Shown here piece after piece: positions 1 through 5,744 of a stretch of 5,744 nucleotides of DNA (within the stretch, counting starts at the first letter, position 1; each line of letters opens with the position of its first letter). The translations under genes and the position numbers were made by a program. The stretch lies in the IMG/VR virus record IMGVR_UViG_2529292908_000002; one strand, written 5' to 3'. The stretch comes from a virus. Its lineage: Duplodnaviria > Heunggongvirae > Uroviricota > Caudoviricetes. The notes beneath the pieces are model-generated. The model had not been told where the DNA came from. It did no database searches and worked only from the letters and a program-made list of their open reading frames with translations.

Positions 1-41
1 GCATACCCCGCCCTGCCCTCGATTCATGGGATGCTGAATAT

Positions 42-2279
42 ATGCAGGAAAACCGCTGGGATGAGGAGTCTGCTTCCTTTGTCCCGGTTGAGACTGAATC
101 CGATCCGATGAACGTCACTTTTGACAACCTAGCCCCTGAAGTACAGAACGCTGTCATGGTTAAGTTCGACACATGTGAAAACATCACCGTTGATATGGTG
201 ATTAGCGCACAGGAATTGTTGCAGGAAGACATGGCAACATTCGACGGCCACATCGTTGAAGCGTTGATGAAAATGCCAGAAGTTAACGCTATGTATCCGG
301 AGCTTAAGCTGCATGCCATCGGGTGGGTTAAGCATAAATGTAAGCCTGGTGCCAAATGGCCCGAAATTCAGGCAGAGATGCGCATCTGGAAAAAAACGTC
401 GCGAAAGGTGAACGCAAGGAAGCCGGAAAATACACGTCTGTTGTTGATCTCGCCCGCGCCAGAGCCAATCAACAACACACTGAAAAATTCAACAGGAAAA
501 ATCAACCCGGTCATTGCTGCCATTCATCGCGAATACAAGCAGACATGGAAAACACTGGATGACGAACTGGCCTACGCTCTCTGGCCTGGTGATGTGGATG
601 CCGGAAACATTGACGGCAGCATCCATCGCTGGGCAAAAAATGAAGTTATCGACAACGACCGCGAAGACTGGAAGCGTATCTCGGCATCAATGCGCAAACA
701 GCCTGATGCCCTTCGCTACGACCGCCAGACTATTTTTGGCCTTGTCCGTGAACGTCCGATCGACATTCACAAAGACCCCGTGGCACTGAACAAATACATC
801 ACTGAATACCTGACTACAAAGGGCGTGTTTGAAGATGAAGGAACAAATCAGAGCGCAACTGATACTCTCTCGTCGCCAGTACCAGAAACTGATGCAGTGG
901 AAACGGCAATTCCAGACAACGAAAAAACCGAATGCAAAGTGGAAGTCGAACCATCTGTAGAGCGTGAGGGGCCGTTCTATTTCCTCTTCGCAGATAAGGA
1001 CGGAGAAAAATACGGTCGCGCAAACAAACTTTCTGGTCTGGATAAGGCACTGGCTGCTGGCGCCACTGAAATCACAAAAGAAGAATATTTTGCCCGAAAA
1101 AATGGCACATACACGGGCTTACCGCAAAATGTAGATACCGCTGAAGACTCAGAACAACCAGAGCCGATAAAAGTTACCGCTGACGAAGTAAACAAAATTA
1201 TGCAGGCAGCCAATATCAGCCAGCCTGACGCCGATAAGTTGCTTGCTGCATCACGTGGTGAATTTGTTGAAGGGATTAGTGACCCGAATGATCCGAAATG
1301 GGTTAAGGGGATCCAGACCCGCGATTCTGTGAACCAGAACCAGCATGAATCGGAACGGAACTACCAAAAAGCGGAACAAAACAGCCCAAATGCGTTACAA
1401 AACGAGCCAGAAACGAAACAGCCTGAATCAGTGGCGCAACAGGAAGTGGAAAAAGTCTGCACCGCCTGCGGTCAGACCGGCGGCGGTAACTGCCCTGATT
1501 GTGGCGCGGTAATGGGCGACGCAACATACCAGGAAACATTCGATGAAGAGTATCAGGTTGAAGTTCAGAAAGATGATCCGGAGGAAATGGAAGGCGCTGA
1601 ACATCCACACAAGGAGAACACTGGCGGCAATCAGCATCACGATAGCGATAATGAAACTGGCGAGACGGCAGATCACTCAATTAAGGTGAACGGTCATCAC
1701 GAAATCACATCCACCAGCAGGACGTGTGACCATCTAATGATCGACCTTGAAACCATGGGAAAAAATCCTGATGCCCCGATCATCTCAATAGGTGCAATAT
1801 TTTTCGATCCGCAAACCGGAGATATGGGACCGGAATTTAGTAAGACTATCGATCTGGAAACTGCTGGCGGAGTCATTGATCGGGACACCATTAAATGGTG
1901 GCTTAAGCAATCACGCGAAGCGCAATCGGCCATTATGACCGATGAAATCCCGTTAGATGATGCACTGTTACAATTGCGGGAATTTATCGACGAAAACTCC
2001 GGTGAATTTTTTGTTCAGGTCTGGGGAAATGGAGCCAACTTCGACAACACGATTTTGCGCCGTTCATACGAACGGCAGGGGATCCCCTGCCCGTGGCGTT
2101 ACTACAACGATCGCGATGTACGCACAATCGTTGAGCTGGGGAAAGCCATAGACTTCGATGCCAGAACGGCTATTCCATTCGAAGGTGAGCGCCATAATGC
2201 ACTTGATGACGCCCGTTACCAGGCAAAATACGTTTCAGTTATCTGGCAAAAACTGATCCCGAGTCAGGCTGATTTTTAA
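42..2279 (+). CDS. Prophage RecE (exonuclease VIII)-family protein with a C-terminal DnaQ-like DEDDh 3'-5' exonuclease domain; may extend upstream of the window
   Basis: Uninterrupted 745-codon ORF. C-terminal ~180 aa (about 1737..2279) carry the three DEDDh motifs: MIDLETMG (Exo I), GNGANFDNTIL (Exo II), HNALDDARYQAKY (Exo III). The central segment DADKLLAASRGEFVEGISDPNDPKWVKGIQTRD and the upstream LNKYITEYLTT region match what I recall of E. coli Rac RecE. A CxxC-x7-CxxC motif sits at 1458..1502, embedded in an acidic low-complexity linker. No in-frame stop between position 3 and the ATG at 42, and no obvious RBS, so the true start may lie upstream. Confidence 0.8.
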   Translation: MQENRWDEESASFVPVETESDPMNVTFDNLAPEVQNAVMVKFDTCENITVDMVISAQELLQEDMATFDGHIVEALMKMPEVNAMYPELKLHAIGWVKHKCKPGAKWPEIQAEMRIWKKTSRKVNARKPENTRLLLISPAPEPINNTLKNSTGKINPVIAAIHREYKQTWKTLDDELAYALWPGDVDAGNIDGSIHRWAKNEVIDNDREDWKRISASMRKQPDALRYDRQTIFGLVRERPIDIHKDPVALNKYITEYLTTKGVFEDEGTNQSATDTLSSPVPETDAVETAIPDNEKTECKVEVEPSVEREGPFYFLFADKDGEKYGRANKLSGLDKALAAGATEITKEEYFARKNGTYTGLPQNVDTAEDSEQPEPIKVTADEVNKIMQAANISQPDADKLLAASRGEFVEGISDPNDPKWVKGIQTRDSVNQNQHESERNYQKAEQNSPNALQNEPETKQPESVAQQEVEKVCTACGQTGGGNCPDCGAVMGDATYQETFDEEYQVEVQKDDPEEMEGAEHPHKENTGGNQHHDSDNETGETADHSIKVNGHHEITSTSRTCDHLMIDLETMGKNPDAPIISIGAIFFDPQTGDMGPEFSKTIDLETAGGVIDRDTIKWWLKQSREAQSAIMTDEIPLDDALLQLREFIDENSGEFFVQVWGNGANFDNTILRRSYERQGIPCPWRYYNDRDVRTIVELGKAIDFDARTAIPFEGERHNALDDARYQAKYVSVIWQKLIPSQADF

Positions 2280-2290
2280 TGTTCAACCGT

Positions 2291-2322
2291 CGCCAGTTGT
2301 CGTTGATATTCTGCAACTGGCG
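2291..2322. repeat. Perfect 9-bp inverted repeat (CGCCAGTTG / CAACTGGCG) with a 14-nt spacer, in the exo-xis intergenic region
   Basis: Read directly: cgccagttg at 2291..2299 and caactggcg at 2314..2322. No T-run follows, so it is not a typical intrinsic terminator; it could be an RNA hairpin or a protein-binding palindrome. Confidence 0.3.
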
Positions 2323-2340
2323 CGTTCCGGAGTGATAGCC

Positions 2341-2437
2341 ATGAGCGAACAGTACCTGATAACGCTCGACGAGTGGAAACCAAAACGGTTCAGTCTCCCA
2401 ATAACAAACACTACCCTGGTGAAATACGGAAAACTAG
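2341..2437 (+). pseudogene. xis: Excisionase (lambda Xis family), 5' fragment (codons 1-32), interrupted by the IS5 insertion
   Basis: ATG at 2341 preceded by GGAG at 2329..2332. Translation MSEQYLITLDEWKPKRFSLPITNTTLVKYGKL resembles the lambda Xis N-terminus (MYLTLQEWNARQRRPRSLETVRRW...). The frame runs into IS5 and stops at 2458..2460, giving a 39-aa truncated product. Confidence 0.75.
2434..2437. repeat. Target-site duplication CTAG (left copy) of the IS5 insertion
   Basis: CTAG immediately abuts the left inverted repeat and is repeated at 3633..3636. IS5 is known to make 4-bp duplications at YTAR targets. Confidence 0.85.
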
Positions 2438-2453
2438 GGAAGGTGCGAACAAG
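2438..2453. repeat. IS5 left terminal inverted repeat
   Basis: GGAAGGTGCGAACAAG; matches the right end in reverse complement at 15 of 16 positions. Confidence 0.85.
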
Positions 2454-2460
2454 TTCCTGA

Positions 2461-3498
<1,038 letters not shown>

Positions 3499-3616
3499 CG
3501 CCAGAAATGGTGGAAAAAATAGCCTAAATAGGCTGATTCGATGTGTTTGCGGGAAAAAAATCGGCCCAGATCCGCGAAATTTTAATCAGCGAGTCAGCTT
3601 GGGAAGAAATGACCTG

Positions 3617-3632
3617 CTTATTCGCACCTTCC
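3617..3632. repeat. IS5 right terminal inverted repeat
   Basis: CTTATTCGCACCTTCC, reverse complement GGAAGGTGCGAATAAG. Confidence 0.85.
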
Positions 3633-3636
3633 CTAG
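3633..3636. repeat. Target-site duplication CTAG (right copy) of the IS5 insertion
   Basis: Directly follows the right inverted repeat and is identical to 2434..2437. Confidence 0.85.
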
Positions 3637-3809
3637 GATACATCGTTCCAAGACCACAAAAAATTCGTGGGCGTTGGCTGATAGATCGCCGAGCAGTATT
3701 TGTTGGGCCTGGTGAAACGGGAATTGCGCCGGAAATTCATACTGGCGATGATGATGCACTGAAGGAGATTTTAACTCATGTCACCGAGGCCACGAAAAAA
3801 CAGCACTGA
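3633..3809 (+). pseudogene. xis: Excisionase (lambda Xis family), 3' fragment, separated from its 5' part by IS5
   Basis: Frame from CTA GGA at 3633 gives LGYIVPRPQKIRGRWLIDRRAVFVGPGETG...KKQH, stop at 3807..3809. Removing IS5 plus one CTAG copy joins it in frame to 2341..2437, restoring an 89-aa Xis-like ORF. The 3' end overlaps the int start by about 30 bp, as in lambda. The Met at 3543 in the ORF track lies inside IS5 and is fortuitous. Confidence 0.75.
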
Positions 3810-4895
3810 CGTAGCCGGTCTTTACGAAAAGTTTGATCGCAGAACTGGCAGAGTTTACTACCAGTATAAAAATCCTGTGACTGGAAAATTTCACGGACTC
3901 GGAACAGACAAAGGTAAGGCAGAAAAAATCGCTTCCACAGCCAATCAGCGAATAGCTGCAGCAGAAGCTGAATATTTCATGCGCAAAATTGATGAAAGTC
4001 CGTCAGCAACAAAACGTCGGGGTATCAGATTAAAGGCATGGGTTGATCGATATCTGAAAATACAGGACACGCGACTGAAAAATGGAGATATTGCAGCTAC
4101 AACTCACAAAGAAAAACTCGAATGGCTGCATACCTGGTTTCCCGTCTGGGAAACCACCCATTGAAAGAACTGGAAGTAAGAGACTTTGCATTAATACTGG
4201 ATGAGTGGCTGGATAAAGACATGGTCAGCACAGCGAGAGTAAATCGTGGATTATGGGTTGATATTTATAAAGAAGCACAGCATGCAGGGGAAGTTCCTCC
4301 TGGATGGAATCCTCCGGAGGCTACCCGTAAACCGATCCCTAAAGTAACCAGAGCCAGGCTCACCATGGAAGACTGGCAAAAAATTTACAATGCAACGCCT
4401 GAAAAACACTTTATCCGTAACGCAATGCTTCTTGCGATTGTTACTGGTCAGCGCCGTGATGACATTTGCCACATGCGTTTTTCAGATGTGTGGAACGAAC
4501 ACTTGCATATCACCCAGGGAAAAACCGGAATGCGTCTGGCGTTACCGCTTACACTACGCTGTGATGCCATTGGGATAACGTTAAAAGAAGTTATTGATGG
4601 GTGCCGAGACAGAATATTAAGTCCATATCTAATCCATAGTCGGCACCAGAAACAACCGAAGCCGATGAGTAAAGACAACCTGAGCGACTACTTTGCCAAA
4701 GCACGGGATCTGGCTGGGATAATTCCACCAGCAGGAAAAACTCCGCCAACATTTCATGAACAACGCTCTCTATCAGAACGGCTGTACCGTGCACAGGGTA
4801 TCGATACAAAAACATTACTAGGACATAAAGTCCAGGCAACCACCGATCGCTATAACGATACTCGAGGTCAGGAATGGGTTAAGCTGGTTATTTGA
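3778..4895 (+). pseudogene. int: Lambda-type tyrosine integrase, frameshifted at about 4135..4150 (two ORFs, 3778..4164 and 4122..4895)
   Basis: N-terminal part (YQYKNPVTGKFHGLGTDK) resembles the lambda Int arm-binding domain (YCYRDPRTGKEFGLGRDR). C-terminal part aligns with the lambda Int catalytic domain: LAIVTGQRRDDICHMRFSDV vs lambda LAVVTGQRVGDLCEMKWSDI, PPTFHEQRSLSERLY vs PPTFHELRSLSARLY, LGHK...YNDTRGQEW vs LGHK...YRDDRGREW. The two halves sit in frames 1 and 3, overlapping at tggtttcccgtctgggaaacc; restoring one C or T in that run would give WFPRLGNHPLKEL, which aligns with lambda AIRRGLPDAPLEDI. Confidence 0.85.
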
Positions 4896-5119
4896 CAAAC
4901 ACCATATGGAATATCCGTCACCATCTCAGGAAAAAAGTGTTGTAAAATGCGTGGCCTAGTTTTGGGGAAACGTTTTGGAGAGATTTTGGAGAAAGGAAAA
5001 AATTGAATAAATTCAAAATCCTGAAAGTGCTCCACCTTATGAATAATCAGGTGATCCACTTCCCGGAGCACCACTGGAACCACCTGAAACAAATGTCATC
5101 GAATGGGTATGTGCACCGG
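4896..5119. other. Candidate phage attachment region (AT-rich, non-coding) downstream of int
   Basis: In lambda the att site lies just beyond the int 3' end. This 224-bp stretch is AT-rich, has no convincing ORF, and ends abruptly where J-like homology begins on the opposite strand. The core site cannot be pinpointed from sequence alone. Confidence 0.4.
4959..4995 (+). repeat. Three tandem direct repeats (GTTTTGGGGA / GTTTTGGAGAGA / TTTTGGAGAAAG), candidate integrase arm-type binding sites
   Basis: TTTTGGAGA occurs at 4973..4981 and 4984..4992 (11-bp register); TTTTGGGGA at 4960..4968. They sit about 65-100 bp past the int stop, which is where lambda has its tandem P' arm sites. Confidence 0.35.
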
Positions 5120-5744
5120 CTGTCCCCATGCATTTACCGCCCGGACTGTCAGCCTGTAATTTCCCAGCGCCAGCTGCGTGAAGCGATATGTGGTTTCCGT
5201 CGTCCGGGCCGTGCTGACCAACCGCTCACTGCCGTCGTCCGCTGCCACGGTCAGGCGAAGCATAAAGCTCACCCCCTTCACCACCTTCGGCGTGTCCCAG
5301 CGCGCCAGCACCTGGTATTCCCCGCTGTCTGCGGTGACTTCTGCGGTCAGGTGCTGAACTGCTGGCGGCGTGACACCATTCACCGTGCCGCTCTGGTCAC
5401 CGTCAAAGTGCGCCCCGTTATCAGTTCATCCAGCGCGGCTGCTTTGTTCATGGCTTTGATGATATCCCGTTTCAGGAAATCAACATGTCGGTTTTCCAGT
5501 TCCGGAAAACGCCGCTGCACCGACAGGGGATCCCGTCGAGAATACTGGCAATTTCACCTGCGATCCGCGACAGCACGAAAGTACAGAATGCGGTTTCCAC
5601 CACTTCAGCGGAGTCTCTGGCATTTTTCAGCTCCTGTGCGTCGGCCTGCGCACGCGTAAGTCGATGGCGTTCGTACTCAATAGTCCCTGGCTGGAGATCT
5701 GTCTCGCTGGCCTGCCGCAGTTCTTCAACTTCCCGGCGCAGCTT
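5120..5744 (-). pseudogene. Phage tail-tip / host-specificity (lambda J-like) gene remnant, 3'-truncated and frame-disrupted; continues beyond the window end
   Basis: Minus-strand translation of about 5120..5420 reads DNGAHFDGDQSGTVNGVTPPAVQHLTAEVTADSGEYQVLARWDTPKVVKGVSFMLRLTVAADDGSERLVSTARTTETTYRFTQLALGNYRLTVRAVNAWGQ, which matches a segment of lambda J as I recall it. Homology stops after NAWGQ at about 5120. Upstream (5420..5744) the protein-like reading frame changes twice (near 5420..5426 and about 5470..5480) and no longer resembles lambda J. Confidence 0.6.

Follow-up and report, generated by a model that had tools for sequence, protein, structure and literature searches.

An attachment core of a potB/potC-type prophage joined to a Qin deletion scar in an Escherichia coli contig, possibly by integrase action at a pseudo-attachment site

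In a 5,744-nucleotide stretch of tailed-phage DNA (IMG/VR record IMGVR_UViG_2529292908_000002; Caudoviricetes), referred to below as the window, a plus-strand gene for a lambda-type tyrosine integrase (int) faces a fragment of the tail gene J on the minus strand, and the question raised by this locus is how the two came to lie side by side. A first-pass annotation had noticed that int converges on J, which is borne out, and had offered three explanations: a fusion of two regions by deletion, a junction between tandem or nested prophages, or an assembly in the orientation of the phage attachment site (attP). Judged by identity to annotated genomes, two unrelated prophage remains meet in the window. 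By the same comparison, the left half (1 to ~5046) is the int-proximal end, attL, of a lambdoid prophage of the type found between potB and potC, and the right half belongs to a common variant of the cryptic prophage Qin. The best reading of the join is that it was made by the phage's own lambda-type integrase (Int), acting on a pseudo-attB in the Qin remnant of the side-tail-fibre gene (stf′). We put the probability of an Int-mediated exchange that gave an inversion at roughly 45%. The window makes up all of contig AIFX01000045.1 (5,744 bp), which belongs to draft assembly GCA_000249635.2; this record stops at both window ends, and the context beyond positions 1 and 5744 was taken from related genomes.

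The evidence that carries this reading lies in the attachment (att) core, which was defined by comparing the attB of E. coli K-12, the attL and attR of an O104:H4 prophage and an uninterrupted Qin. The normal 14-bp core, TGAATAA[G/A]AAGGTG, overlaps the last codons of potB. In prophages located at potC the sequence around the core is ...CCTTA TGAATAA GAAGGTG GAACTCGAATG, running into potC, and in the uninterrupted Qin it is ...ACTGTATTT AGAATAA TCAGGTG ATCCACTTCC...; the window has ...CCACCTTA TGAATAA TCAGGTG ATCCACTTCC.... Alignment to related prophages places the breakpoint at 5041-5046, within the bases GAATAA and ~75 bp from the end of the J fragment (J′). The int-side att region had been said to start immediately after J; instead, about 75 bases of stf′ lie between them, and the boundary falls outside the interval 5100-5130 that had been proposed for it. 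The Qin target, AGAATAATCAGGTG, agrees with the core in register at 11 of 14 positions, and the 40-bp sequence of the Qin pseudo-site is ACTGTATTTAGAATAATCAGGTGATCCACTTCC. Counting both strands, 12.7 kb contains about 1.4 sites with three or fewer mismatches to the core, and a genome contains hundreds. An in-register look-alike exactly at the breakpoint is nevertheless unlikely to be due to chance (~6e-5 per position), and the chance that the phage-side break would also fall in the core is very small. A breakpoint inside the core and an in-register likeness of the target, both expected of Int-mediated recombination at a secondary site, are present here.

The DNA to the left of the core also has the make-up of an attL. 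The gene for a heterobivalent tyrosine integrase is adjacent, albeit frameshifted, and between int and the core lie three direct repeats of TTTTGGRGARA (4960-4970, 4973-4983 and 4984-4994). One further copy is found in the potB-side P arm of the O104:H4 prophage (L016 13122-13132), and there is none elsewhere in the window or in the 41 kb of that prophage stretch (L016). Because they accompany a lambda-type integrase with an arm-binding domain, these repeats are candidate arm-type Int-binding sites. Where the bacterial arm of the primary site, potC, would follow the core, Qin stf′ DNA is found in its place. The two core copies of O104:H4 strain 2009EL-2071 differ from each other at position 8, with TGAATAAAAAGGTG on the int side (L015 ~21410) and TGAATAAGAAGGTG on the potB side (L016 12992), and other lysogens have G at this position on the int side. 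This difference may help to place the strand-exchange (overlap) region.

The origin of the left half was read directly from its identities. The DNA from the 3′ part of the excisionase gene (xis) through int and its 144-bp spacer to the core (window 3633-5053) is 99.4-99.8% identical to DNA in 1635 complete genomes. In annotated examples this DNA leads directly into potC-potD, an arrangement counted in 1623 complete genomes, and int likewise leads into potC in every other contig retrieved through int fragments. Further upstream, window 1168-2438 shares 96-98% identity with the exonuclease (exo)-xis region of potC prophages (ON470612 and O104:H4). A complete lambdoid prophage of ~48 kb lies between potB and potC in O104:H4 2009EL-2071 (3.053-3.102 Mb), and prophages between these two genes have been described in the literature, Sp6 of O157:H7 Sakai among them (PMC8190617; also PMC8065619). 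The window therefore shares with the potB/potC prophages (the Sp6 site, O104:H4 2009EL-2071 and vB_EcoS-640R1/813R8) the order exo-xis-int-P′ arm-core at 96-99.8% identity, as well as the lambda-type heterobivalent integrase and the arm repeats. It differs from them in what follows the core, which is potC in those prophages and Qin stf′ in the window, and in the first 1167 bases of exo, which are a different allele; in this comparison, only the window has an xis interrupted by an insertion sequence (IS) of the IS5 family and an int with a −1 frameshift.

Both of these lesions bear on when the join could have been made. On either side of the IS, the parts of xis are collinear with the annotated excisionase gene of ON470612, and relatives carry an intact xis of 89 aa. 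Two further draft genomes carry the identical xis/IS fusion beside an intact int that leads into potC; one of these genomes differs from the window over 1.55 kb by only one single-nucleotide polymorphism (SNP) and the A-run indel. The insertion is absent from complete E. coli genomes (0/5426), and look-ups of open reading frames (ORFs) in the assembly collection returned no record of the left-side xis/IS fusion ORF. The integrase gene is split into one ORF with the arm-binding domain (3778-4164; PF09003, Arm-DNA-bind_1) and another with the Phage_integrase domain (4122-4895; PF00589), by a run of five A (4112-4116) where intact relatives have six. If the missing A is disregarded, it matches the intact O104:H4 int (372 aa) at 99.8% identity. 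Dozens of contigs with differing SNP backgrounds are on record with the same split int (128 + 257 aa), several of them from whole-genome shotgun projects with the related prefixes AIFA, AIFB and AIGY, and A5 is either a slip that has occurred repeatedly or an error in sequencing the homopolymer. We considered whether the frameshift proves that the event postdates the inactivation of int, and rejected this, as a one-base slip in A6 is found on different SNP backgrounds. In the sister assemblies with the three prefixes, the same int is located in contigs of 85-149 kb and adjoins potC, so the different topology of the window is not a general effect of the pipeline. The only int-carrying contig retrieved from the window's own assembly leads into Qin.

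The right half was placed in the same way. Window 5041-5744 (704 bp) is identical, apart from one missing G, to the Qin prophage of E. coli FORC 064 (NZ_CP022664.1), in which the RefSeq order is pinQ - tfaQ - tail-fibre pseudogene - 'phage tail tip protein J-related' pseudogene - nohA - ynfO - ydfO. This near-identity includes both deletion junctions, Nu1/J′ and J′/stf′, and a NohA frame that ends in out-of-frame J′ sequence. The window departs from FORC 064 in its stf′, which is cut after ...SPDYS and is followed by attL and int rather than by the remaining stf′ and tfaQ. The J-like minus-strand fragment that had been seen to end after NAWGQ at ~5120 is genuine: its translation (...VTPPAVQHLTAEV...YRLTVRAVNAWGQ) matches the Pfam family Ig_J, the Ig-like domain of the tip attachment protein (PF24421; E=3.4e-36), over profile positions 1-90 of 104, so that even this domain is cut short, and its nucleotide sequence shares 99.3% identity with the host-specificity gene (J) of phage mEp460 and 92% with lambda J (nt 17302-17605). 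Nucleotide and Pfam comparison together place the J homology, previously expected at 5120..5420, at 5119-5422. The fragment comprises ~100 codons, corresponding to residues ~600-700 of a protein of ~1130-1160 residues, and ends after ...RAVNAWGQ. It is homologous to gpJ, although neither a full-length ORF (~1130-1160 aa, with N-terminal tip and C-terminal receptor-binding domains) nor the context of a tail operon (I/K/L upstream, lom/stf downstream) is present, and J′ instead lies between nohA and the last 300 nt of stf.

The end of J after NAWGQ is, from these alignments, the J′/stf′ scar and is unrelated to the integrase. Comparison with an intact J and an intact stfR-type gene shows a 4-bp microhomology, GCTG, at this junction (5119-5122), and another, TATC, is found at the J′/nohA junction (5419-5422). 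The stf′ sequence is 100% identical to intact stfR-type genes up to 5122 and extends leftward to ~5041-5047. Below 5122 it represents the start of the last ~100 Stf codons; in the stf frame, the DNA between the att crossover and the end of J translates as ...GAHTHSMTFVSGGSSGAPGSGSPDYS, and the full Qin stf remnant of other genomes matches Phage_fiber, a tail-fibre repeat (PF03335). The J′/stf′ scar exists identically without a nearby int in many E. coli. Among 5426 complete E. coli genomes, 91 have without interruption a 301-bp stretch that takes in both the pseudo-att site and the J′/stf′ junction, and a 95-aa J′ ORF occurs in 1794 blocks of the assembly collection, with the same Qin context in every long contig read. 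The nohA′-J′-stf′ block is, on this distribution, an old and widely inherited deletion scar of a common Qin variant, produced by illegitimate recombination. The suggestion of a deletion that fused two regions was therefore partly right: J was indeed truncated by deletion, but the new neighbours of J′, stf′ on one side and Nu1′ on the other, lie within Qin and are neither int nor the att region. The positions of all features are given in Table 1.

Table 1. Features of the window, from the left contig end to the right
Feature	Position	Strand	Description
Exonuclease gene (exo), 3′ 2.2 kb	1..2279	+	Early-region prophage gene; cut by contig start; ORF 42..2279
xis (excisionase)	2341..3809	+	Split by IS: 5′ part 2341-2437, 3′ part 3637-3809
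IS5-family element, ISKpn26-like	2438..3632	+	1195 bp; transposase ORF 2506-3498
int (lambda-type tyrosine integrase)	3778..4895	+	−1 frameshift in A run
P′ arm	4896..5039	+	Same sequence as the spacer between int and core in prophages at potC
Hybrid att core, TGAATAA|TCAGGTG	5040..5053	+	Left part phage-type, right part Qin-type
stf′	5047..5122	-	~76-bp piece from the 3′ part of the side-tail-fibre gene; reads AGAHTHSMTFVSGGSSGAPGSGSPDYS
J′	5119..5422	-	304-bp internal fragment of the gene for tail tip attachment protein J, cut on both sides
nohA, 3′ two-thirds	5419..5744	-	Nu1-like small terminase / DNA-packaging gene of Qin; cut by contig end

An Int mechanism is favoured because of the position of the breakpoint in the core and the similarity of the target to it. 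In the exchange proposed here, attL of the potB/potC prophage would have recombined with the pseudo-attB in Qin stf′, intramolecularly and independently of Xis, and would have inverted ~0.45-0.5 Mb across the terminus region. In FORC 064 the pot core and the Qin pseudo-site were observed to lie in inverted orientation, ~451 kb apart; K-12 MG1655 shows the same orientation of its pot core relative to Qin, but its Qin has no pseudo-site stretch. Intramolecular exchange between sites so oriented would invert the DNA between them and leave the cell viable, where a deletion would be lethal, and its expected product is exactly the arrangement of the window. From the K-12 map, we take the terminus (dif) to lie inside the inverted segment. 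The prophage was probably Xis-defective while it was still at potC, since the same xis::IS insertion is carried by relatives that remain there, and for such a prophage excision would be unlikely and inversion favoured; that the outcome was an inversion rather than a re-insertion, we infer from this and from the inverted orientation of the sites. The inversion would have created a reciprocal junction, AACACTGTATTTAGAATAAGAAGGTGGAACTCGAATGATCGG, in which the C-terminal part of stf′ is joined to potC.

Events of this general kind are on record for related phages. Inversions involving a secondary att site have been reported for the Int of HK022 (PMC5495485), and the use of secondary sites has been reported for Stx-phage integrases (PMC8065619). 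The window resembles secondary-att recombination by lambda, HK022 and Stx phages in that the breakpoint lies in the core, the target is core-like (11/14) and one arm-bearing partner would suffice. It differs in that this partner may be attL, not attP, and in that the integrase is known here from sequence alone. In the 'bent-L' pathway of Segall and Nash, lambda Int and IHF reportedly recombine attL with attB in vitro in the absence of Xis.

A number of observations weigh against an Int-mediated inversion. The junction was found in 0 of 5426 complete E. coli genomes, and exact scans for its pattern found no match in species-representative genomes or in metagenome or viral contigs; the ORF look-ups in the assembly collection likewise held no record of the junction-spanning ORFs. 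Scans of the viral and metagenome collections for patterns of the predicted reciprocal junction gave no match. The ORFs predicted at that junction have no start codon upstream of it, so no distinctive protein is expected. The window is a whole draft contig of 5.7 kb with two homopolymer frameshifts (A5 in int and G4 in nohA), one of them unique to the contig; they look like sequencing errors or a low-quality consensus, and the consensus quality of the contig is doubtful on their account. With int frameshifted, the prophage's own Int would be inactive, and the event must predate the frameshift unless the latter is a sequencing error. Two of the three mismatches, at core positions 8-9, probably lie in or near the strand-exchange region, which disfavours exchange by a tyrosine recombinase. 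Exchange of the attL × attB type is, moreover, familiar only from in vitro work with lambda. The full scenario, in which a natural isolate harboured a 'grounded' prophage with an IS-destroyed xis that recombined its attL with a pseudo-att in a fossil prophage and so flipped ~0.45-0.5 Mb over the terminus, is less likely than not.

The junction could also have arisen by insertion. A phage that had excised from potC, or had newly infected the cell, may have integrated through its attP into the pseudo-attB of Qin stf′, in which case the window would be the attL end of a nested prophage. The crossover and the core similarity would be the same as for the inversion, and the geometry of the junction fits equally well. 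Such an insertion would predict a second junction of the C-terminal part of stf′, the core and the P arm, AACACTGTATTTAGAATAA[G/A]AAGGTGAGCGAATTAG (also given as AACACTGTATTTAGAATAA[G/A]AAGGTGAGCGAATTAGATG), and, if it came about through excision, a restored potB-potC attB, CTGAATAAGAAGGTGGAACTCGAATG. We regard insertion as unlikely, since the xis::IS insertion at the same position in near-identical potC prophage ends suggests that Xis was already dead, so that excision would need Xis in trans, and a phage that carries the IS and is xis-defective is unlikely to spread by infection. The earlier suggestion of a tandem or nested prophage junction holds to the extent that two prophages do meet, J belonging to Qin and int/xis/exo to a potB/potC-type prophage; the orientation of a tandem lysogen is unsupported. 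An attP or tandem-lysogen junction would require J and int to come from one phage whose b region had been deleted, and had been argued from their convergence, as on the vegetative map of lambda. An attP-orientation assembly would require the phage's P arm on the right of the core, and different DNA is found there: the P arm in the attR of O104:H4 reads AGCGAATTAGATGATTAATCC... and contains an arm repeat, and the window at this point reads ATCCACTTCCCGG..., which is Qin stf′ and contains none. In addition, J′ is a 304-bp internal piece between Nu1′ and stf′, identical to the chromosomal Qin scar, and the J′ protein is only 59% identical to the J of a potC prophage (residues 600-698 of the 1157-aa gpJ of O104:H4). 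The P-arm comparison and the identity to Qin rule out the attP and tandem readings, and the origin of J and int from a single phage is rejected on the identity to the Qin scar together with the 59% figure; there is next to no chance that either applies.

Nor need Int have been involved, or the junction be real. If the contig is a chimera of assembly or library preparation, int would continue into potC and Qin would be uninterrupted in the actual chromosome. The contig is short, bounded by repeats and assembled through a multicopy IS, both of its ends lying in sequences that are repeated among prophages (exo on the left and nohA on the right); its junction is present in no other assembly or collection scanned, and it has homopolymer indels, one of which is unique in the collection. 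A chimera is nevertheless improbable, because the 6 bp shared at the join are far too few for a repeat-induced misjoin, and a random break would not be expected to fall in a 14-bp core and in register on an 11/14 copy of it. The long int-potC contigs of the sister assemblies, set beside the entry of this assembly's sole retrieved int contig into Qin, point the same way. Recombination at the 6-bp GAATAA microhomology without Int, or a replication template switch there, appears more improbable still. The older Nu1/J′ and J′/stf′ scars were made in this manner at 4-bp microhomologies, and both int and xis are inactive in the window contig, but such a process leaves unexplained why the break lies exactly in the att core and why agreement with the core resumes, in register, at the five bases AGGTG beyond the crossover.

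The remaining features of the window concern the two prophages separately. The exonuclease has a YdfE_C domain and an Rv2179c-like 3′-5′ exonuclease domain (PF16473; E=2e-67), and its relatives are annotated as 'exodeoxyribonuclease VIII/exonuclease'. A mosaic boundary is found within its gene at ~1168, where a 5′ portion of 1.17 kb representing a different allele meets a 3′ portion of 1.27 kb with 96-98% identity; window 1-1167 has no match to the exo alleles of ON470612 or O104:H4. The IS has terminal inverted repeats, GGAAGGTGCGAA.../...TTCGCACCTTCC, that were read directly from the sequence, and a 4-bp target duplication, CTAG, at 2434-2437 and 3633-3636. Its transposase matches the Pfam families DDE_Tnp_1 and DUF772, and matching DNA in RefSeq is labelled 'IS5-like element ISKpn26 family transposase'.

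On the Qin side, the nohA fragment has 100% protein identity to Qin NohA in two frames and matches Phage_Nu1 (PF07471; E=2e-58). A one-base deletion leaves four G at 5526-5529, where all relatives have five; the 46-aa ORF that results is unique to the window contig in a collection of 153 billion gene positions and so points to a sequencing error here. The last 12 residues of NohA as annotated in this Qin variant (181 aa) are an out-of-frame reading of J′ (TGRTLTVTRAAR; window 5380-5422), and this C-terminal end is, as the reading frames indicate, a fusion ORF made by the Nu1/J′ deletion. The Qin of K-12 MG1655 (NC_000913.3 1634885-1636367) is without the J′ piece, and there nohA abuts a 963-bp stfQ; so, to judge from these alignments, the Qin tail region exists among E. 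coli in no fewer than two forms that arose by different deletions.

All components of the window are of known kinds, namely a RefSeq-annotated Qin scar, a potB/potC-type prophage and an IS5-family element, and recombination of lambdoid integrases at secondary sites is textbook knowledge. The window reveals no new type of element and opens no new question, and it represents ordinary prophage decay and rearrangement; only the pairing of a potB/potC-prophage attL with a pseudo-att in Qin stf′ is new, and it was seen once. For annotation, J′, stf′ and nohA are to be read as the Qin scar, and int, xis and exo as the end of a separate potB/potC-type prophage, rather than all of them as remains of a single phage with a deletion. 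Should the junction be genuine, it provides one more example of a lambdoid integrase acting on a pseudo-att inside another prophage, and it may have made a terminus-spanning inversion, which is of modest interest for the ways in which defective prophages reshape E. coli chromosomes. An inversion, if it did take place, would be an in vivo counterpart of Xis-independent, 'bent-L'-like recombination of the attL × attB type, and would represent a route to large inversions that depends neither on IS elements nor on homology.

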